From a virus (lineage: Duplodnaviria > Heunggongvirae > Uroviricota > Caudoviricetes): a stretch of 8,748 nt of DNA. Each line of letters starts with the position of its first letter. The first letter of the stretch is position 1. The notes beneath the pieces are model-generated. The model made no database searches. It saw only the letters and a program-made list of their open reading frames with translations, and had not been told where the DNA came from. Made by a program: the position numbers and the translations under genes. Below, one piece after another: positions 1 to 8,748 of the stretch. The stretch is taken from IMG/VR virus record IMGVR_UViG_2541047780_000006. One strand, written 5' to 3'.

Positions 1-249
1 ATGCGTATTGAAATCTGCATAGCCAAAGAAAAAATGACTAAAATGCCAACCGGTGCTGTGGATGCGTTAAAGGAAGAATTAACCCGACGCATCAGTAAAC
101 GTTATGACGATGTAGAGGTGATCGTAAAAGCCACCAGCAACGATGGCCTTTCTGTTACGCGCACCGCCGATAAAGATTCAGCTAAAACTTTTGTTCAGGA
201 AACTCTGAAAGATACCTGGGAGTCTGCTGACGAGTGGTTTGTTCACTAA
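1..249 (+). CDS. DinI-family protein (DinI-like RecA/SOS modulator), 82 aa
   Basis: The 82-aa ORF aligns over its full length with E. coli DinI (81 aa) as recalled from memory: MRIE..IAK N-terminus and the conserved acidic C-terminal tail [10 protein letters not shown]. It diverges from chromosomal DinI, so it is a DinI-like paralog rather than dinI itself. The ATG is at window position 1, so the promoter and any LexA box are not visible. Confidence 0.8.
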
Positions 250-316
250 TTAGCACGTAAAATCAGTAACAGCTGGAAATCATTCAATACTCGCACTATC
301 GAAAGTTAACCAGCCA

Positions 317-362
317 GCCGCAGTATCCTGTCATGACAAGTTACTGCGGCTTTTTACTTTTT
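317..362 (+). terminator. Rho-independent terminator downstream of the dinI-like gene
   Basis: Inverted repeat GCCGCAGTA (317-325) / TACTGCGGC (342-350) with a short inner palindrome in the loop, followed directly by TTTTTACTTTTT (351-362) on the plus strand. It lies about 65 bp after the stop at 247-249. Confidence 0.6.
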
Positions 363-366
363 ATAT

Positions 367-609
367 TTAACGGATCAACATCCAGATCAGCAGACACGCC
401 ACCACCGGCACAGCAAAATCCATCAGGCTTGCCACATCCCATGCACGTGGATCAAAACCGCCCCACCACGGCATGTTAATCCGCTTGCCATGCCCGAACA
501 TTTCAATCCAGCGATATTCTGCCTGGGTGTGTTCACGCGCAATGAAGAACGTACAACCGGCTATCGCCCCGTAAGCCCAGTTTCCGGTAAAAAGACCAGC
601 CAGTAGGTT
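367..609 (-). pseudogene. Orphan 3-prime gene fragment (C-terminal piece of a hydrophobic, Trp-rich protein); possible displaced host gene end at the prophage boundary
   Basis: Minus-strand frame open for 80 codons between an in-frame TGA (rc of 610-612) and a TAA (rc of 367-369). It has no start codon until a Met 44 codons from the end and no RBS. Hand translation: NLLAGLFTGNWAYGAIAGCTFFIAREHTQAEYRWIEMFGHGKRINMPWWGGFDPRAWDVASLMDFAVPVVACLLIWMLIR. Absent from the ORF track, presumably because the Met-initiated part is short. I could not identify the parent gene. Confidence 0.3.
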
Positions 610-644
610 TCAAAAAACACAATAACCAATTGTATTTGAAGCAA

Positions 645-775
645 AAGACAAGACTTTGAGATGTTTTTTTGTACCTTTTTTTTATGTTTTTAACTGTCTG
701 ATTTTATTGAAATCTTTTTTAGTTTTGCAGAAGGAATTTTTTACTTGATTGTAACTTTTTCGTTTTTTTGGGGCT
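645..775. other. Very AT-rich spacer with a dense series of T-tracts (A-tracts on the minus strand); candidate curved DNA, att arm or H-NS/IHF-binding region
   Basis: Nine runs of 4-8 T within about 105 bp (664-670, 676-683, 687-691, 702-705, 715-720, 723-726, 737-742, 756-760, 763-769). No ORF on either strand. Spacing is irregular (7-18 bp), so strict helical phasing is not demonstrated. Confidence 0.3.
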
Positions 776-912
776 AATTGACGCGCAATGCTGGGCGGGG
801 AGCGCACAGCCAAAAAAACCGAAATTGACCGCTAATTACTGCCAATCATCATCGCTCTGATTGAGCGTAAATCATTCAGGTTATTCAGTTCTTCCTTCTG
901 CTCTCGCTGACG

Positions 913-1083
913 TCAATAAATCCCATCATTGCGATCAACCTCATCCTTAACCATTGATGCGAGCAGTTCTTCCAGTTTCTGCGCTGACAGCTTTACCTGG
1001 TGATCTTCAGCATCTTCCCGGGCTATTGTGGTTCGCGCAGTGGCTGATTTTGCTGACATCACCACAGGGGGCAGACGGACCAT
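913..1083 (-). CDS. Hypothetical small acidic protein, 56 aa (MVRLPPVVMSAKSATARTTIAREDAEDHQVKLSAQKLEELLASMVKDEVDRNDGIY)
   Basis: ATG at rc 1081-1083 is preceded by GGAGG about 10 nt upstream (rc of 1091-1099); stop is rc of 913-915. The ORF track shows a 93-aa version starting at 1194, but that N-terminal extension runs through the degenerate hairpin of repeat copy A and has no RBS, so the shorter form is preferred. No recognisable family. Confidence 0.35.
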   Translation of the reverse strand: MVRLPPVVMSAKSATARTTIAREDAEDHQVKLSAQKLEELLASMVKDEVDRNDGIY

Positions 1084-1147
1084 TGAACCATGGCCTCCGG
1101 AACAAATAAGGGCAAAAATAACAACCACTATCGAAAGCTCACAAACT

Positions 1148-1363
1148 AACCGCAGCACGTTCCTGCATACGACGTATCTGCGGCATAATCCCAATGATTA
1201 CTCCCTGACAGGATTTGCAGGCCACTCAATATCAGGTGCAGTTGATGTATCAACACGATTCAACAATACCCGATATTTATTCCATGCCTCCAGCAACGAT
1301 CTTTCTTCCTCCGTTGCGATTTCCAGATCTACAGCATCCTGCAGTGGCGCAATATACTCACTG
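1148..1363. repeat. Direct repeat copy A (~216 bp): tfa 3-prime end plus a degenerate downstream hairpin
   Basis: Manual alignment of 1148-1363 with 2198-2412 gives about 87% identity, with one indel inside the hairpin. Flanking sequence is unrelated on both sides. The hairpin CCGCAGCACGT...ACGTATCTGCGG (1150-1183) is an imperfect version of the perfect palindrome in copy B. Confidence 0.85.
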
Positions 1364-1467
1364 AATTCCTGGATGTAGAACTGTGTGGTGACGGTCTTCC
1401 AGCCATTCGGCTCCTGCTGTATCGAAGCATACCAGGCTATTTCAATATCGCTATGCTGCGGCAGCAT
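1198..1467 (-). CDS. Short tail fibre assembly protein paralog, 89 aa (unique 36-aa N-terminus fused to the conserved Tfa C-terminal ~53 aa; tfaX-like)
   Basis: The C-terminal 53 aa ([53 protein letters not shown]) are near-identical to the C-terminus of the full Tfa at 2247-2831. The N-terminal 36 aa ([36 protein letters not shown]) are unrelated to Tfa. A good RBS, AAGGGG, sits 4 nt before the ATG (rc of 1472-1477). It could be a functional short chaperone or a recombination remnant. Confidence 0.6.
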
Positions 1468-1523
1468 TTAACCCCTTGTAATTCATCGCCATAATTGATT
1501 TAATTCACAAATAAAACTATAAC

Positions 1524-2192
1524 ATGGTGAAATCAATGAAAAAAAACACAGATGATGGGGCTAAAATTTACACACCACTTACCCTAAAGCTTTATGACTG
1601 GTGGGTTTTGGGAGTATCAAATCGGCTTGCATGGGGATGTCCTACAAAGGAACACCTTCTTCCACACTTTCTGGAACATGTAGGTAACAACCATCTGGAT
1701 ATTGGTGTTGGAACTGGGTTTTACCTTACTCACGTACCTGAGAGTAGTCTGATATCTTTAATGGATTTGAACGAAGCTAGCCTGAACGCGGCATCTACAA
1801 GGGCTGGGGAATCAAAAATTAAACATAAAATTAGCCATGATGTTTTTGAACCTTATCCCGCGGCGTTACATGGTCAATTTGATTCCATTTCCATGTTTTA
1901 CCTTCTTCACTGCCTGCCTGGAAATATATCTACAAAAAGCTGTGTAATACGCAATGCGGCGCAGGCCTTAACTGACGATGGAACTCTATACGGAGCCACA
2001 ATTCTTGGCGATGGAGTTGTGCACAATAGCTTCGGTCAAAAACTGATGCGCATTTACAATCAGAAAGGCATCTTTTCAAACACAAAAGATTCCGAAGAAG
2101 GCTTAACACATATACTCTCAGAGCATTTCGAGAATGTTAAAACCAAGGTTCAAGGTACTGTAGTAATGTTTTCCGCTTCAGGGAAAAAATAG
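1524..2192 (+). CDS. ybcY: Class I (Rossmann-fold) SAM-dependent methyltransferase, 222 aa; prophage cargo gene, YbcY-like
   Basis: Motif I HLDIGVGTGFY, an acidic residue at the end of beta-2 (LMDLNE), motif II FDSISMFYLLHCLP and motif III LTDDGTLYGATIL. No DPPY/NPPY or PCQ motif, so it is not a DNA methyltransferase. Visibly more AT-rich than the flanking phage genes and on the opposite strand. The symbol is assigned from my recollection that DLP12 of E. coli K-12 has the order tfaD-ybcY-tfaX, with ybcY a putative SAM methyltransferase; this was not verified by alignment. An alternative start at ATG 1536 (MKKNTDD...) has a GGTGA Shine-Dalgarno 5 nt upstream and may be the true start. Confidence 0.75.
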   Translation: MVKSMKKNTDDGAKIYTPLTLKLYDWWVLGVSNRLAWGCPTKEHLLPHFLEHVGNNHLDIGVGTGFYLTHVPESSLISLMDLNEASLNAASTRAGESKIKHKISHDVFEPYPAALHGQFDSISMFYLLHCLPGNISTKSCVIRNAAQALTDDGTLYGATILGDGVVHNSFGQKLMRIYNQKGIFSNTKDSEEGLTHILSEHFENVKTKVQGTVVMFSASGKK

Positions 2193-2197
2193 CATCC

Positions 2198-2412
2198 AAC
2201 CGCAGCACGTTCTTGCTTAAGACGTGCTGCGGCATAATCCCAATGATTACTCCCTGACAGGGTTCGTAGGCCACTCAATATCAGGTGCAGTTGATGTATC
2301 AACACGGTTCAGCAACACCCGATACTTTTTCCAGGCTTCCAGCAATGAGGTTTCTTCCTCCGTTGCAATTTCCAGATCTGCAGCATCCTGAAGCGGCGCA
2401 ATATGCTCACTG
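2198..2412. repeat. Direct repeat copy B (~215 bp): authentic tfa 3-prime end plus downstream hairpin
   Basis: Partner of 1148-1363 at about 87% identity. Covers the last ~55 codons of tfa and about 50 bp of 3-prime flank, including the perfect palindrome at 2200-2232. Confidence 0.85.
2200..2232 (-). terminator. Perfect 11-bp-stem palindromic hairpin between the convergent tfa and methyltransferase genes; probable terminator
   Basis: CCGCAGCACGT (2200-2210), loop TCTTGCTTAAG, ACGTGCTGCGG (2222-2232). On the minus strand it lies 15 nt after the tfa stop, with a T-run (rc of 2184-2189) about 10 nt after the stem. On the plus strand it lies 8 nt after the methyltransferase stop but has no T-run. 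Confidence 0.45.
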
Positions 2413-2831
2413 GCTACCTGCATCAGGTTGTTTTTTGTTTCTTCCGCCTCCCGGATCCGGAACAGTTTTTCTGCTTCCGTATCCTTCACCCAGGCTGTGC
2501 CGTTCCACTTCTGAAACTCCCCTTCCGGCGATAACCAGGTAACATTTTCCGGTAACGGACCGAGTTCAGAAATAAATAACTCGTCCCCTGACGCTACGTC
2601 ATAAACCGTTTTCCCCCGATGGTCTTCAACGAGATGCCACGATGCCTCATCACTGTTGAAAACAGCCACAAAGCCAGCAGGAATATCTGGTGGTGCAATA
2701 TCGGTACTGTTTGCTGGCAGACCTGTATGAGGCGGAATATATGCGTCACCTTCACCAATAAATTCATTAGTTCCGGCCAGCAGATTATAAATTTTTATGG
2801 TCCGTGCTTGTTCACTCATTCTGAATGCCAT
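2247..2831 (-). CDS. tfa: Tail fibre assembly protein Tfa, 194 aa
   Basis: Same length and near-identical sequence to phage lambda Tfa as I recall it ([53 protein letters not shown]...). The start ATG overlaps the stf stop in TAATG. GAGG Shine-Dalgarno lies 8 nt upstream. Confidence 0.95.
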
Positions 2832-5800
2832 TATGCAAGCCTCACAATATAGTTAAATGCGATGTTTTTGACGGTGTTTTCCGCGTTACCCGCAGCGTTA
2901 ACGGTGATGGTGTGTCCATGTGAACCAATCGCAACGGAGTGCGTATGCGCACCAATACCTACAGTATGTGCATGTGCGCCAGAACTTGCTGCAGTACCAG
3001 ACAGCGAGTGGGTATGAGCACCTGCTGACTGTGTCTGAATACGTTGATAATACGATCTATAGGAAGAAGTCTCCGGGCTTACTTGATACTGTGAATTCTG
3101 GACATAAGTGAACCCACCGCCATCATAAAATGCTAACGCAGAACCGCCGCCTCCTGGCCAACGAATACCATTACCATGAGTATGAACACCGGCAGACCCC
3201 GTAGAGCCACTCAGACTGTGCGTATGCGCCCCAGTGTTATTCGTGGATTTAGTGCCGTAATCAAACGACGATGTGGTTTTCGTCCCCAAATCCGTACTGG
3301 ATGCGCTGGCGCTGTGGGTGTGCGATTTTATGCCGTCCTGTTCCTGAGACAATACGGCCCGGCCACTGGCGGGTTTGCCCTTGATTGTCCAGCCGCGCAT
3401 ATCTGGAATAACACCTGAAGGATAGGCAATAGCCAGTTTCGGATATGCTGCCTTATCAAACGTCTGCCCCTGCATGATTGCATAACCTGCAGGTGGTGTA
3501 TCTGATGGCCACGGCAGCGGAACACCTGGCGGAAACGCTTCAATATTTGCCGAGCCGTCAAATTTTACGCCGTTAATTGTCCTTGCAGTTTGCAATTTGG
3601 TTGCTGTGCTTGCATTACCCGATAAAGATCCAGTGATACCACCACTCGCGTTTAATTTAGTTGCAATTGTAACATTGCCAGTATGGTTACTAATTATAAA
3701 CGGCCTTAAGCTATTGTGCGTACCAAGACTGTTACCCGAATCTGTCAACATAAAATATGTGTTTGATCCATCATTTCGGATAAAGAATCCATAGTTGCCA
3801 TAGGCAATACGCAGACCATTTGCTGACCTTGAAATAACCTCACCAGCAGCAGTTAAACCACCTGAAAGAGTCCCTCCAGTTAATGCCAATGCCCCAATAT
3901 TTGAAGGGGTCAATGTGATATTTGCACTACCATCAAATGACACACCGTTAATCGTTCTGGCTGCCTGAAGTTTCGTGGCGGTCGCAGCATTACCTGTAGT
4001 GTTTTGATTACCGGTAGCGTTGACTCCAGGCAAGTTGATATCTGCCGATCCATCAAATGCCACGCCCCCAATCTTACGTGCTGTCTTGATCTTGGTCGCA
4101 GTATCTGCGTTTCCGGTCAAATTACCAGTAACACTACCACCAACTTTTAGTCCATTACCGATGGACACCAACCCTGATCTTAAGTTTATAGAGAATGGTC
4201 TTAATGAACCGATGTCTCCATTTTCCCCCTCCCCTTCATTAGTCGGAATAAGATGAAGATGATCTTCGGAACGCCTAAAAATAAGGCCAAAGGCTTGGTT
4301 GAATATTCGAAGAGCATTTATCGTGCTGATTTTTAACTGCCCTCCCATTGTGTCGCCAGTTTTTTGAACTGAACTATCTTTAACAGTTTTAACTGCCTTT
4401 GGCGTTGCCGCCAGCTTTTCACTGGTGCTGTTTGTTGCACTGCTGAGCTGTACTATCCCCTTTTTCGTCGTGCTCGCATCCTCCAGCGCCACGGCGGATG
4501 CAATATCCTCTGCCCGTTTTGCTGCTGTCTCGGCGCGCGTTGCCGCGGATTCAGCAGCAACTTTGCTCTGAGATGCAGCCGTCGCACTGCCTGCCGCCTC
4601 TGATGCTTTCGTTGTTGCTGTCGTGGCACTACCTTTCGCTGCTGACGCTTGTCTGGTCGCCTCATCTTTTGAAGCAGACGCAGATGATGCCGATGACGCC
4701 GCTGAACTGGCTGACGATGCGGCTGCCGCCTTAGAGGAAGCAGCATTGTCTGCTGAAGTCTTTGCATTTGTTTCAGAGGTTTTTGCTGCAGAAGCAGACC
4801 TCGCTGCTGCAGTGGCTTGCTCAGTGGCTTTGCCAGCCTTCGTTGTGGCTGTTGAAGCGGATGATGCGGCGCTTTCTGCCGATTTTCCGGCGGCGGTGGC
4901 ACTGGCTGAGGCCTGCCCGGCACTTGTTGACGCGGCACTGGCAGATAATGCAGCCGCTGTTTTTGAACCTGCCGCAGCTGAGGCGCTCTGTCCCGCTGCT
5001 GTTTCAGAAGACTTAGCGTTCGTCTCGGACGTTTTTGCCGCCTTCGCGGAATTTCCTGCCGCCGTTGCCGAGGAAGCTGCACTACTGGCACTTGATGATG
5101 CATTCGTTTCTGAAGATTTCGCTGCCTCTTTTGAGGCCGCCGCACCCCGTGCCGAGGTGGCAGCTTCTGACGCCTTCGTGGTCGCTGTGGATGCAGAAGT
5201 GGCTGCCGATTTTTGTGATGCTGCGGCATTCGTTTCTGACGTTTTCGCGGCACTGGCGCTGGTAGCTGCCGCGCTTTTTGATGACTCTGCAGCAGCAGCA
5301 CTTTTTGCTGCTTCACGGGCCTTTGTCGATGCCGTTCCTGCGCTGGAAGACGCTGACTGAGCCGACGACGCGGCCTGTCCGGCTGACGTGCTGGCGGCAC
5401 GTGCTGAGGCTGCAGCATCGGTTGCATGAGTTGCCGCCTCGCTGGCTGATGCACTGGCATCGCTGGCTGATTTTTTCGCGGCTGCCGTATTCTGTGCAAC
5501 CGCGGAGGCGTTACGTGACACCTCTTCCACCATCTGCTCAAAGCGGCGCAGTGCCTCCGGTCGGACATCATCCTCCGTCATGGCACCGAGAAAATCATTC
5601 AGCGTACCTGGTCTGGAACCTTCATAGACGGTAATGGTCCCGGCATGTGAAGGCGGAAAATCTTCAACCAGCAGGGTGACGCTGTACTGGCCATACTCAA
5701 CATCCATGCTGTAACGCCCGGCTTCATCCGGATTTTCAGAGGCCACCGTGTTCACCACCACCGTGCTGCTGGTCCGTCTGGCCTTCAGCACAATGGTGCA

Positions 5801-5857
5801 GTTCTGTACTGGTTTTCCTGTGCCATCTTTAAGCACGCCAGAAATTTTTACTGTCAT
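2831..5857 (-). CDS. stf: Side tail fibre protein Stf, 1008 aa, mosaic
   Basis: The N-terminal ~115 aa ([22 protein letters not shown]...) and the C-terminal ~250 aa (PWPSD...[32 protein letters not shown]...GAHTHSLSG...[29 protein letters not shown]) match lambda Stf as recalled. In between are a long Ala/Ser/Thr-rich repeat region and three copies of the phage tail-fibre repeat (G-N-A-x-T-A-T-K-[IL]-x-x-A-R-x-I-x-G-V-x-F-D-G-S-A-[DN]-I). Confidence 0.93.
4420..5515. repeat. Intragenic degenerate tandem repeats (Ala/Ser/Thr-rich shaft of Stf; about 42-bp, 14-residue periodicity)
   Basis: The protein motif K(T/S)SETNA recurs at spacings of 42, 28 and 7 residues. The corresponding DNA motif GC(A)TTYGTTTCWGANGNTTTYGC recurs near 4764, 5016, 5101 and 5227. 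The region is nearly stop-free in several frames, which generates long shadow ORFs on both strands. Confidence 0.6.
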
Positions 5858-6008: not shown

Positions 6009-6608
6009 TCAGAAACGGTATCCGATACCAACAATAAATGCATCCGTTCGCCAGTCGCCACTGCCGGAGCCTTCATAAGCAATATCAATGGCCACGGATT
6101 CGGTCGGGTTAAACTGCACGCCAGCCCCCCACGCCAGAGACGTGTTGCTGTGGCGACCGTCATCACTTCCGGTCAGCACATCGTGCGTTTTCCCCTTGTT
6201 GTCAGTTACGCGGAGATAATCCCCGGAGAAAGTCGACACACGGCTGTAAGCCACACCCACCATCGCATACGCGCTGAACCATTCATTCACGCGTACAGAC
6301 GGCCCCGCCATCACGCTGAACCAGCGGTTACGCACGGAATCTTCATGCCAGCGGGTATCGCTGTAATGCGTTTTTTGCTCATCTTTGGCATTGGCATAAC
6401 TGAATGACGTCACCAGCCCCAGCGTGTCCGTAAACTCATAACGGTATTTCACGTTAATCCCGTTCAGATCATCGCTGCCAGGCATATCAGTATGGGTCTG
6501 AAGATACCCGGCGCTTAGTGTGGACTGATGCTCTGCTGCGCTCGCTGGCGTACCAGCGGCAACCAGCCAGACTACTGCGGACAGAATAACAGCACATAAT
6601 TTACGCAT
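6009..6608 (-). CDS. lom: Outer membrane protein Lom (Ail/Lom/OmpX/PagC family 8-strand beta-barrel), 199 aa
   Basis: Signal peptide MRKLCAVILSAVVWLVAAGTPASA. The C-terminus IAYEGSGSGDWRTDAFIVGIGYRF matches lambda Lom. GAGAGG Shine-Dalgarno lies 6 nt upstream. Position between J and stf is as in lambda. Confidence 0.95.
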   Translation of the reverse strand: MRKLCAVILSAVVWLVAAGTPASAAEHQSTLSAGYLQTHTDMPGSDDLNGINVKYRYEFTDTLGLVTSFSYANAKDEQKTHYSDTRWHEDSVRNRWFSVMAGPSVRVNEWFSAYAMVGVAYSRVSTFSGDYLRVTDNKGKTHDVLTGSDDGRHSNTSLAWGAGVQFNPTESVAIDIAYEGSGSGDWRTDAFIVGIGYRF

Positions 6609-6675: not shown

Positions 6676-8748
6676 TCAGCTAATCGTGATGCCTGCAGTG
6701 GCTTTCTTCATCACAACAACCAGCAAATCGCTGATACTTGCTGTGGGATACCAGCCATTTACCCACCATGCTGATACAGAAAACTCCAGCGTCATGTGAC
6801 CGCGACCAGCAGGCATATCAATAACACCACTGTAAACCAGCGTATTATCCAGCGCGGTACGGTTATAAATTTCAGCACCGTTTTTCTTCACTATCAGGCG
6901 GCATGACGAATAAGTATCGCTGTTCTCCCGCTCATGTCTGGCACCGCTGAAAGCCACCGCCGGAATAACAATCTGCCGGTTAAACGGCTGATCGTCATAA
7001 ACCCTGACGGTAATGGTTCCTGATGGCCAACGCTTCGGTGCACGGGAGTCACGAGGGAAAGCCTTACCCACTGTTTTAACGAGATCGCCTTCAATCTGGT
7101 TTGCAGACAGTTTCCCTCTGATGACACAGTTCTCGTTAATGGTGACATTATTGAGCGTGCCGGTATTCGCCGTGATGGCTCCACTGATATCCGCATTGCG
7201 GGCTGTCAGCCTGCCATCCGGCGTCAGGGAAAACGTCGGAGGATTGCCGGATGACGTGATGCTCACCGCAAACAGTCGCTTCAGGAACACGTCGTTCATG
7301 AACAGCTGATTCCCCTGCGCCACAAACAGCGGCGTGGTGTTGCCGTTCTCCGGGGTAATCATCGCAATGCGATCGGCCTGCAGCAGAATGTTACTCAGGG
7401 TCTGACCATCAACATCCTCAATCCCCGCGCCAATCCCGGCCACATAGGGAATACCGTTTTTTGTTTTCTGCACCTTCAGCATATACATGGCATTCAGCTC
7501 ATTGCGCGTGTCTGACTGAACCCGCTGGATTTGCTGTATGGTCACGGCCTGGTCACCCAGCTTTTTATCCGTGGTCGAGGTAATTTCACTCCCTTTTTTA
7601 TCCACGTACTGGCGGACCTGTGCTATCTGCCGGGCGTTTTCTGACTGCCCCTGGCTGACAGTCTGTGAGATTTCACTGCTCACCCGGTCCACTTTCTGGC
7701 TCATCTGCGCGATGGCCAGTGTCTGGTCCTCATTCTTTTTCGCAACCAGCTGCGTGAGGCTGTTTTCCGCCTCCCCGATTTTCCGGGTCACTTCTGCGAT
7801 ATCCGTGTCCATCCGCTGACGGATGTCTTCTTCCAGTTGCGTGACCTCCGTACGCAGCGCTGAAGCATCAATGCGCTCTTTCAGTGCCTGACCCAGAAGC
7901 GTCTCATCTATCAGCCCCCGGAAAATTTCCAGATACCCTTCACCATCATTGCTGGGCTGCCCGCTGGCTTCCACAAAAGCAGATTTTCCCACCAGGTTGA
8001 CGCTTCGCACGTAAAACCAGAAATCCGTCCCCGGCTTAATCCGGCTCCCCTGGACAGTCCACTGACTGCCGGACCCCAGATAACGGGCAGATTTTTCCAC
8101 CTGTGCCGTGTTCGTGATGCGTTTTTCTGAGAACCAGAATTCAAACTGTATCGTCGGATCATACACCGCAAGACGCGGGACCGCCGTTATCTGAAAATAC
8201 CCCGGCGTCAGCTCAATGGTGGCGGGTTTTGCAGGTGCGTTAATCCGGAAGGTGGTGGTGGCAGGTTCACCCTGCTGGCCATAACTGTTTATCGCCCGCA
8301 CCGTCAGGGTGTATTCCCCCAGTGGCAGGCCACTGAAACGGTGCTCCGTGTCTGCGGTGATGGCGGTGGTCACCAGTCTGGCATCCGTTCCCTTACCACT
8401 GGTCAGGCGCAGACTGAAGCGCACGCCCTTCACCACCCGCGGCGTGTCCCATTTAGCCTGCGCCAGATACTGGCCGTCAGCTGCGCTCACCTCCACCGTC
8501 AGGTGCTGTACTGCCGGTGGGATGACGCTGTTCAGGGAGCCTGACTGCGGCTCAAAGCGGGCACCGTTATCCACGATGGCTTCTTTTTCCGGTACGTGCT
8601 GCACCGCCGTGATGGCAAAGGTGCCGTCCGTGTTTTCCCGGACGGAGACACAGCGGAACAGGCGACGGCGCAGTGACGGCAGGGAGAGTCCCCACACCCC
8701 GTATGTCTCCACACCATCCGGCAGGGTGCTGACCTGTATCCGGTCCGG
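6676..8748 (-). CDS. J: Tail tip host-specificity protein J (central tail fibre), C-terminal ~690 codons; 5-prime end lies beyond the window
   Basis: The reading frame stays open from the window edge at 8748 (in frame, no stop) down to the TGA at 6676-6678. The GTG start at 8710-8712 reported by the ORF finder is therefore internal. Large protein directly upstream of lom, as in lambda. The C-terminal region is the receptor-binding part in lambda J. Confidence 0.9.

Follow-up and report, generated by a model that had tools for sequence, protein, structure and literature searches.

A tfaX-type open reading frame beside the ybcY cargo gene of an E. coli lambdoid prophage is probably a chimeric remnant of a phrog_3893-family gene and tfa

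The window analysed here, that is, the whole 8,748-nucleotide stretch of DNA from the IMG/VR record IMGVR_UViG_2541047780_000006, covers, in reverse orientation, the right end of an E. coli lambdoid prophage (Table 1). The product of the full-length tfa gene matches the Pfam family Caudo_TAP over positions 1-130 (E=1.9e-44) and is labelled 'tail fiber assembly protein' by PGAP. A second, partial copy of tfa makes up most of a short open reading frame (ORF), and the ybcY-type methyltransferase gene, transcribed in the opposite direction, sits between both tfa copies. The true start of ybcY is likely the ATG at 1536; the change M1T was seen in 10 alleles of the gene. Downstream of the short ORF, an ORF at 913-1194 matches both phrog_1141 (tail fiber protein) and phrog_7703.

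Table 1. Genes and other features of the window, in order of position.
Feature	Position	Strand	Remarks
DinI-like gene	1-249		Beyond the tail-fibre fragment
Tail-fibre module remnant: DUF4376-type C-terminal fragment with internal stop	832-1101	-	Follows the short ORF directly; called a pseudogene by PGAP in L001 and L005, two near-identical loci whose coordinates were mapped onto the window
Duplicated tfa 3' UTR with degraded terminator hairpin (1150-1183)	1148-1197	-	Terminator-like minus-strand site
Short chimeric ORF, 89 aa, ATG start	1198-1467	-	Ortholog of E. coli K-12 tfaX (b0563); phrog_2341
tfa-derived 3' segment of the short ORF, codons about 32-89 and stop	1198-1374	-	Corresponds to the conserved helical domain at the C-terminus of Tfa; left-hand repeat copy
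phrog_3893-derived fragment: native 5' UTR with Shine-Dalgarno sequence, ATG, codons 1 to about 31-36	1375-1490	-	PHROG profile, tblastn, phmmer, DNA and protein alignments
ATG of the short ORF	1465-1467	-	
Divergent spacer between ybcY and the short ORF, 56 bp	1468-1523	.	
ybcY-type class I SAM-dependent methyltransferase (cargo gene, or moron)	1524-2192	+	Pfam Methyltransf_12/23/25; phrog_2132, E=4e-157
Right repeat copy: 3' end of full-length tfa and strong hairpin (2200-2232)	2198-2423	-	
tfa, full-length tail fibre assembly gene, 194 aa	2247-2831	-	Last gene of the late operon, after stf
stf	2831-5857	-	Upstream of tfa in the late operon
lom	6009-6608	-	
J	6676-8712	-	

The two tfa copies form a direct DNA repeat of about 89% identity (1148-1374 versus 2198-2423, ~227 bp) that includes the tfa 3' UTR and its hairpin. 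The right-hand hairpin (2200-2232) is strong on both strands, the folding energy being -27.9 kcal/mol for the late-operon strand and -23.9 kcal/mol for the opposite one (z about -5.2), and its predicted structure is terminator-like for both of the genes that converge on it, tfa and ybcY. The copy behind the short ORF (1150-1183) is degraded: -20 kcal/mol, z = -2.05.

An 89-residue ORF with an ATG start, carrying the C-terminal part of Tfa, is present on the minus strand as the original prediction had described it. BLASTP aligns it to full Tfa with 51/63 identities (E=1e-33), and Pfam recognises in its residues 31-86 only HMM positions 75-130 of the 131 positions of Caudo_TAP, which falls short of the complete domain and of the fibre-binding domain that precedes it in full Tfa. 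The last ~53 residues are a copy of the C-terminal helical region of the resident Tfa, terminal W-P motif included; the identity of about 94% that had been claimed for them is slightly high, our count being 48/53, or 91%. The AAGGGG Shine-Dalgarno (SD) sequence was found at 1472-1477 on the minus strand, with a spacer of only 4 nt (TTAA) between it and the ATG. The ORF is also, as had been proposed, cut off from stf-tfa by the opposing methyltransferase gene and the hairpin at 2200-2232, and no tail-fibre gene lies immediately upstream of it in the same orientation. As for its N-terminus, Pfam returned no match for the first 38 residues; AlphaFold2 gave no confident fold for the N-terminal third, the model of the whole chimera being all-helical and of low confidence (mean pLDDT 62.7; 51-56 for the first 30 residues).

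Judged by its sequence, the short ORF is tfaX, an E. coli prophage gene that has long had its place in the catalogues; the comparison with TfaX, suggested along with the original prediction as a check, thus pointed to the right gene. K-12 TfaX, a 61-aa protein, is identical in 61/61 positions to residues 1-61 of the ORF, after which TGG is replaced by TGA; the ORF matches phrog_2341 over positions 1-88 of 88 (E=4e-61); and the gene order is the same, with tfa followed by ybcY on the opposite strand and then the short ORF. Hundreds of complete E. coli genomes contain near-identical DNA, with ST131/O25b-type strains as the best matches, and the locus is also carried by viable temperate phages, for example PhiR26_1, ev243 and 2G7b; the methyltransferase is named YbcY in one phage record. 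PGAP annotates the short ORF in near-identical genomes as a partial pseudogene ('tail fiber assembly protein, incomplete, missing N-terminus'). An 82-aa form whose Tfa tail is replaced after VDTS (P0021) occurs often in the protein database, on at least 998 contigs.

A 191-nt segment that spans the fusion junction, the spacer and the start of ybcY (1340-1530) is present, at a coverage of at least 80%, in 3437/5426 complete E. coli genomes (63%). That the chimera occurs in 63% of these genomes, makes up a PHROG family of its own and has a genuine SD and ATG is an observation that counts against its being a scar. An exact-junction scan with one genome per species recovered only E. coli and E. 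albertii, plus two metagenome-assembled genomes (MAGs), labelled Bacillus and Planococcaceae, which are likely contaminated. With the junction restricted to E. coli and E. albertii in this one-genome-per-species scan, there is no diverged lineage that would allow a real test of selection.

The original prediction took the N-terminus to be novel and unrelated; instead, PHROG profile, tblastn and phmmer matches identify it as residues 1-36 of a small phage protein of the phrog_3893 family. Among PHROG profiles, phrog_3893 (positions 2-36, E=3.3e-7) covers residues 3-37 of the ORF, and tail fibre assembly (Tfa) families cover residues 29-87. The match to phrog_3893 is restricted to positions 2-36 of a 79-position profile; HK225 gp28 and a Klebsiella phage ORF match it over positions 1-79 (E=1e-42 and 1e-37, respectively). 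When queried with the first 38 residues, tblastn recovered all of the chimeras and, more weakly, the N-termini of other small phage ORFs: those of phage Ayreon (75%), a 79-aa ORF of the Klebsiella phage (51%, E=8e-6), and HK225 gp28, HK140 and mEp390 (35-39%). An exhaustive phmmer search with the same 38 residues added two full-length phrog_3893 members, P0123 and P0124, which are 65-69% identical to the query. NCBIfam and PADLOC returned no match for either the short ORF or the phrog_3893 members.

In the protein alignment, the switch from one parent to the other falls inside a short Q-x-x-S-E/K stretch that is common to both. In the DNA alignment with the phrog_3893 parent, the SD and the ATG are common and homology ends upstream of about -25: about 23-25 nt of the parental 5' UTR, SD included, survive in the window, and the ybcY upstream region replaces the rest. 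Since the SD and the ATG are inherited from the phrog_3893 parent, they are not evidence of selection on the fusion. All tfaX-type copies have CTG in place of the family-conserved start ATG, which lies 7 nt from the SD, and are left with only the upstream ATG, 4 nt from the SD. The identification of this second parent, which explains the ribosome binding site (RBS), is a modestly new detail that we draw from profile matches and alignments.

The phrog_3893 gene is divergent from dinI in HK225 and in the metagenomic locus L131. A LexA box lies upstream of it, canonical in HK225 (CTGTATATACATACAG) and in the Klebsiella phage (CTGTATATAAAAACAG) and degenerate in L131; the combination of LexA box and divergent dinI is a context that we observed, with dinI checked in HK225 and L131, rather than a published definition of the family. 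Neither canonical LexA box occurs within 1468-1523 of the window, where the ybcY upstream sequence is found instead, and the divergent dinI neighbour is also absent. PGAP places a 'DinI family' pseudogene antisense to the N-terminus of the short ORF, a label that we do not take as evidence of a dinI fragment at this position: the call probably derives from DinI proteins in the databases that have an N-terminal extension. This origin is suggested by a long antisense ORF in frame with dinI in HK225.

We then considered how the short ORF might be expressed. A consensus promoter scan of the 56-bp spacer yielded two candidates for ybcY, TTAACC-16-CATAAT (1468-1495) and TTGATT-17-TATAAC (1495-1523), and no sigma-70-like site on the minus strand upstream of the short ORF. 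The ybcY/tfaX spacer of K-12 bears an in vitro SELEX peak for the RpoD holoenzyme as well as an H-NS mark, and a tfaX promoter, ATGGCA-15-TTAAAT, has been proposed there (PMC3946193). We rejected this promoter for the short ORF: its -10 element overlaps the ATG, and the transcript would thus lack the start codon and provide no translatable message. For K-12 tfaX, a macroarray detected induction in mixed biofilm, and an overexpression screen lists the gene with a 3-fold increase in kanamycin MIC; both hints are weak and concern the truncated 61-aa form. RNA polymerase binding to the K-12 spacer in vitro, the biofilm macroarray and the kanamycin screen are all observations that count against a scar.

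These signals bear on the reading of phrog_2341 as a functional, independently expressed small protein, which we consider quite unlikely. The Tfa trimerisation helices that it retains could allow such a protein to enter or poison Tfa/Stf assemblies, whether as a mini-chaperone that helps the resident fibre or as a decoy directed at lambdoid phages that are co-resident or superinfecting. Besides the SELEX peak and the weak expression and overexpression hints, this reading can draw on a genuine SD and ATG and on the very wide distribution of the chimera. As for expression, however, the K-12 hints come from the truncated form, the native LexA-box spacer has been lost, the consensus scan found no promoter upstream, and the promoter of PMC3946193 would leave the start codon out of the transcript. 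Comparison with Tfa chaperones cuts both ways. The Tfa-derived part aligns to residues 123-174 of Mu gpU (5YVQ chain sequence, E=1.8e-9), and in PMC9608196 trimerisation is assigned to the conserved C-terminal domain and fibre binding to the N-terminal domain. On these assignments the Tfa-derived part falls in the trimerisation domain, which keeps the mini-chaperone and decoy readings alive, but the N-terminal domain given the fibre-binding role is missing. Moreover, the cassette is found in phages without lambda-type stf/tfa, the ORF is frameshifted in the viable phage 2G7b, and PADLOC returned no match.

A more specific version holds that the chimera is a real, separately expressed mini-protein in which a fragment of an apparently SOS-regulated protein presents the Tfa trimerisation helices, and that it acts as a dominant-negative decoy against the tail-fibre assembly of competing lambdoid phages or as a tuner of the resident side fibres; the 89-aa form would be the active one, and the truncated forms would be losses in decaying prophages. 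We regard this version as very unlikely.

The state of the ORF across related loci bears directly on these proposals. The decay sample comprised 120 IMG/VR loci with an exact anchor in the N-terminal part, together with annotated loci, giving about 125 copies: 82 keep an 86-89-aa frame with a Tfa-like tail, 40 are disrupted and 3 run off contig ends. A frame that is open in 82 of about 122 scorable copies, with the C-terminal motif kept, speaks for a functional small protein; the recurrent and varied nature of its inactivation speaks against one. The lesions in the disrupted copies, about one third of the sample, are of at least 9 different kinds, among them stop codons in place of W12, Q29 and W62, a 7-bp deletion, further frameshifts, 3' ends that have been replaced after VDTS (yielding 101 and 110 aa) and replaced 5' ends. 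The frameshifted form with the 7-bp deletion is the one found in phage 2G7b. An ISEc8 element borders a truncated short ORF in the one O157:H7 strain that was covered, with ybcY intact beside chromosomal genes; in argU-associated DLP12 remnants, everything past the first 30 nt of the short ORF is deleted and ompT abuts ybcY; and many further frameshifted forms are found among database cluster representatives. The terminal W-P motif is lost in the 61-, 66-, 82- and 101-aa alleles. Two thirds of the sampled copies are open (86-89 aa) and have the Tfa C-terminal W-P motif, an observation that counts against a scar. The Tfa-type tails of these open copies vary, mirroring different tfa alleles.

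Relatives with frameshifts or stops, which the original prediction had named as the sign of neutral decay and as grounds for its refutation, are thus present in the sample. The open frame and the RBS had also been offered, if weakly, as a hint of function, and this hint does not hold: stops, frameshifts, truncation by an IS element or exchanged 3' ends affect about one third of the copies, all copies are young, as is evident from their identity of at least about 97%, and the RBS is inherited.

The neighbouring ybcY is intact in 96/104 of the same loci and is clearly under purifying selection: its variant sites comprise 26 nonsynonymous (N) and 26 synonymous (S) changes against an expected 0.72 : 0.28, which gives an omega of about 0.35-0.4. 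Within the tfaX lineage, single-nucleotide variants in the short ORF amount to 5 N and 1 nonsense versus 3 S, with about 0.68-0.75 N or nonsense expected under neutrality, and in the 32 phrog-derived codons, which tfa cannot convert, to 3 N, 2 nonsense and 5 S; both sets are small counts from related copies. Within-lineage substitutions therefore look neutral, with no synonymous excess of the kind that a functional small protein would call for, and given the small numbers of variants and the relatedness of the copies this is an absence of evidence for constraint, not proof of neutrality. We also compared the short and the full tfa copies, a check that had been suggested with the original prediction. 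Their dN/dS of 0.09-0.16 (dS about 0.44) was rejected as a sign of constraint: the divergence predates the fusion. The ratio is uninformative because both copies diverged within intact tfa genes and gene conversion keeps importing selected sequence. The adjacent non-coding part of the repeat differs by only about 10%.

The repeats that flank ybcY invite a different reading, in which the locus matters solely as DNA: the duplicated tfa 3' end and terminator would serve as a portable homology arm for the movement of the ybcY cassette between tfa-bearing phages and for its loss, the ORF being incidental. Several observations are in line with it. Breakpoints vary within both repeats: homology to the window breaks in the tfa-derived part of the short ORF (about 1220-1250) in 50/123 related loci, and at several points within the right repeat (2230-2390) in 64/123. 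Several different tfa alleles are represented among the Tfa tails of the short ORF. A search with a synthetic 'empty site' query found one prophage (L140) that carries, at the same chromosomal position, an allele with a full-length tfa followed by the downstream flank of the short ORF, without ybcY; the 3' end of this tfa is a patchwork of the two repeat copies of the window. Finally, a full lambda-type tfa is missing beside the cassette in about half of the loci that bear it; there, the cassette follows unrelated tail-fibre modules and has tfa fragments on either side. In those phages, the short ORF cannot be a required fibre-assembly factor.

Nevertheless, we find it unlikely that a homology arm is what the locus is for. 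The proposal describes the consequence of a scar rather than a selected function, and there is no sign that the repeat itself is selected for; among the top matches, a single clear empty site was found; and 89% identity over about 227 bp is a modest substrate for homologous recombination.

That the region specifies an IS009-family small RNA (Rfam RF02111) instead of a protein is, in our view, extremely unlikely. The model does match 1241-1444 on the minus strand (112.5 bits, E=1.3e-26) and the 3' region of full tfa (225 bits), and K-12 shows the same pattern; however, the score of the short ORF lies below the gathering threshold of 117 bits, and what the model aligns is mostly unpaired tfa coding sequence, so the match reflects tfa homology rather than an independent RNA gene.

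Taken together, we favour the reading of the short ORF as a tfaX-type chimeric remnant, that is, an in-frame phrog_3893-tfa mosaic joint that hitch-hikes with ybcY, the tfa-3' repeat being a recombination substrate only; we put its probability at roughly three in four (about 0.76). The original prediction had left the choice between an alternative fibre-assembly factor, a decoy and a recombination scar: the evidence favours the scar. Besides the two-parent origin, the lost LexA-box spacer, the decay and the near-neutral variant counts, this reading draws on the match to K-12 tfaX and its gene order, the homology breakpoints within the tfa-derived part, the empty-site allele, the loci that lack a full tfa, the degraded hairpin behind the ORF, the PGAP pseudogene calls and the low pLDDT of the first 30 residues.

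We propose that the ancestor was a lambdoid phage with stf, tfa and the terminator, then ybcY on the opposite strand, followed by a phrog_3893-family gene that pointed away from ybcY. A crossover in the common Q-x-x-S-E/K stretch, illegitimate or guided by microhomology, would have joined codon about 33-36 of the small gene in frame to codon about 139 of tfa, and in doing so duplicated the tfa 3' end and terminator. The fusion has kept the parental SD and an ATG, and has lost the parental LexA-box spacer and the family-wide start codon. The fragment would persist by its physical attachment to ybcY, whose promoter region it may overlap or abut. The ~227-bp tfa-3' repeats would act solely as a substrate for recombination, exchanging patches with other tfa alleles by gene conversion and letting the ybcY cassette be gained or lost, and the peptide, if made, would be expected to be dispensable for fibre assembly.

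As a discovery the ORF carries little weight: the K-12 reference genome already lists it under the name tfaX, and its usual annotation is that of a partial tail-fibre-assembly pseudogene. Its N-terminus and RBS come from a second parent gene and are no evidence of function, and dN/dS between both tfa copies is misleading, the divergence having preceded the fusion. The selected unit at the locus is the ybcY methyltransferase cargo gene, and the flanking tfa-3' repeats document the gain, shuffling and loss of cargo cassettes at the ends of lambdoid late operons. For annotation purposes, phrog_2341, or 'protein TfaX', is better treated as a chimeric fragment.

The closest known counterpart is E. 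coli K-12 TfaX (tfaX/ylcE, b0563), located in the cryptic prophage DLP12 in the order tfaD-ybcY-tfaX: it is the same gene, with the same SD, the same 56-bp divergent spacer and the same gene order. In DLP12, a TGA at codon 62 limits the product to 61 aa, whereas the window retains the full 89-aa frame with the Tfa C-terminal tail; likewise, K-12 ybcY is a pseudogene (A7 instead of an A8 tract), whereas ybcY is intact in the window.

With lambda Tfa and Mu gpU (PF02413, Caudo_TAP; 5YVQ), the short ORF shares its last roughly 55 residues, a close copy of the C-terminal helical region that includes the ...RVDTS..P.IEWP motif. Unlike these chaperones, it lacks the N-terminal domain, which is the fibre-binding one according to PMC9608196, as well as the first part of the C-terminal domain; it has no adjoining co-oriented fibre gene, and its N-terminus comes from an unrelated family. 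That N-terminus is instead shared with the phrog_3893 proteins (for example HK225 gp28 and the 79-aa ORF of Klebsiella phage Kp4882-3), and the homology takes in residues 1-36 together with the SD and the region of the ATG; the identity is 51% for the Klebsiella phage protein and 65-69% for the E. coli-type members P0123 and P0124. Parents of the phrog_3893 type have LexA boxes and a divergent dinI, whereas the short ORF has ybcY with its upstream region, and CTG in place of the family start codon.

Finally, the locus as a whole resembles the mosaic joints and morons of lambdoid phages, in which cargo with its own promoter and terminator is inserted between the end of the late operon and the attachment site. 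As in morons, ybcY has promoter candidates and a putative hairpin terminator, is transcribed against the late operon and has gene fragments at its borders. Unlike at usual moron borders, one of the border fragments here is an in-frame fusion with an inherited RBS, and gene callers therefore report it as a protein.

The N-terminal part of the short tfaX-type chimeric ORF belongs to phrog_3893, a conserved, uncharacterised phage family whose small proteins measure about 79 aa (loci are listed in the table below). In phage HK225 and in the metagenomic locus L131, dinI is divergent from the phrog_3893 gene. In Klebsiella phage Kp4882-3 there is an overlap between the gene and the first part of a 130-aa ORF; judged by eye, that ORF looked UmuD-like, although a Pfam search returned no match for it. 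Canonical LexA boxes are located in the spacer upstream of the phrog_3893 gene: CTGTATATACATACAG in HK225 and CTGTATATAAAAACAG in the Klebsiella phage. Given this setting, phrog_3893 is, as judged from sequence, probably an uncharacterised SOS-induced phage gene.

At one related locus (L133), PGAP calls a pseudogene, ‘DinI family protein, missing C-terminus’, antisense to the N-terminal part of the short ORF. As a long HK225 ORF antisense to gp28, the phrog_3893 member of that phage, continues in frame into dinI, the source of the call is probably over-extended DinI entries in the databases. The call fits the inferred dinI-adjacent origin of the N-terminal fragment.

Coordinates of features in the window, and of the regions that hold the named feature in related loci
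Feature	Locus	Position	Strand	Remark
Intact DinI-family gene	window	1-249	+	beyond the tail-fibre fragment
Tail-fibre gene fragment, DUF4376 / phrog_1141 type	window	832-1194	-	downstream of the short ORF
IS009 match, short ORF	window	1241-1444	-	
Equivalent of the DinI pseudogene call in L133	window	1369-1449	+	L133:2530-2610
Predicted -10, TATAAC	window	1518-1523		
A8 tract	window	1539-1546		
45-aa hypothetical protein WP_001309429.1	window	2137-2274	-	PGAP
IS009 match, tfa 3' coding part	window	2290-2488	-	
phrog_3893	L127 (HK225)	2950-3300		
ORF antisense to gp28	L127 (HK225)	2662-3288		
phrog_3893	L128 (Kp4882-3)	2960-3243		
phrog_3893	L131	240-685		
phrog_3893	L132	140-461		
Collapsed cassette	L126 (Ayreon)	2786-3099		
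Empty site	L140 (NZ_CP043406.1)	1424-2452		
Truncated short ORF	L134 (SS TX 313-1)	1-2535		

Rfam model IS009 (RF02111), which carries an RNA gene label in Rfam, scores 225 bits on the 3' coding part of tfa and 112.5 bits on the short ORF, and the same match pattern is seen for K-12 tfaD and tfaX; what IS009 models seems to be tfa coding sequence and not an RNA in its own right. The ORF of WP_001309429.1 spans the terminator-like hairpin, reaches into the end of ybcY on one side and of tfa on the other, and looks like a spurious gene call. In near-identical loci, PGAP reports an internal stop in the tail-fibre fragment. Positions 1-602 of the window are unlike ST131-type genomes, which the remainder matches.

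An ‘empty site’ allele occupies the same prophage position in NZ_CP043406.1: neither ybcY nor the short ORF is present, and the DUF4376 remnant comes straight after a full tfa. At the 3' end of that tfa, bases diagnostic for one repeat copy of the window are mixed with bases diagnostic for the other. Phage Ayreon carries a collapsed form of the cassette, in which a remnant of the tfa 3' end, 32 codons long, and the hairpin are followed by no more of ybcY than its last few bases. These are joined to the spacer, and next comes a copy of the phrog_3893 N-terminus that is more diverged and ends after 32 codons. In E. coli O157:H7 strain SS TX 313-1, the short ORF is cut to an annotated fragment of 156 nt adjoining an ISEc8 (IS66-family) element, a truncation from which the 82-aa form abundant in databases may stem. 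As ybcY is the sole intact phage-derived gene remaining there beside yciG/yciF/yciE, its retention suggests that it is kept for the benefit of the host.

The annotated ybcY ATG at 1524 directly abuts the predicted -10, and 10 related alleles have lost it by mutation (M1T). Translation therefore probably begins at the ATG at 1536, which, if so, would make the mRNA nearly leaderless. The A8 tract follows this ATG immediately. The K-12 copy of ybcY is a pseudogene and has A7 in place of the window’s A8. In 5 of 104 loci ybcY breaks off at codon 9 of the annotated frame, which fits the slip seen in K-12; given both observations, the tract is a possible hot spot of slippage.
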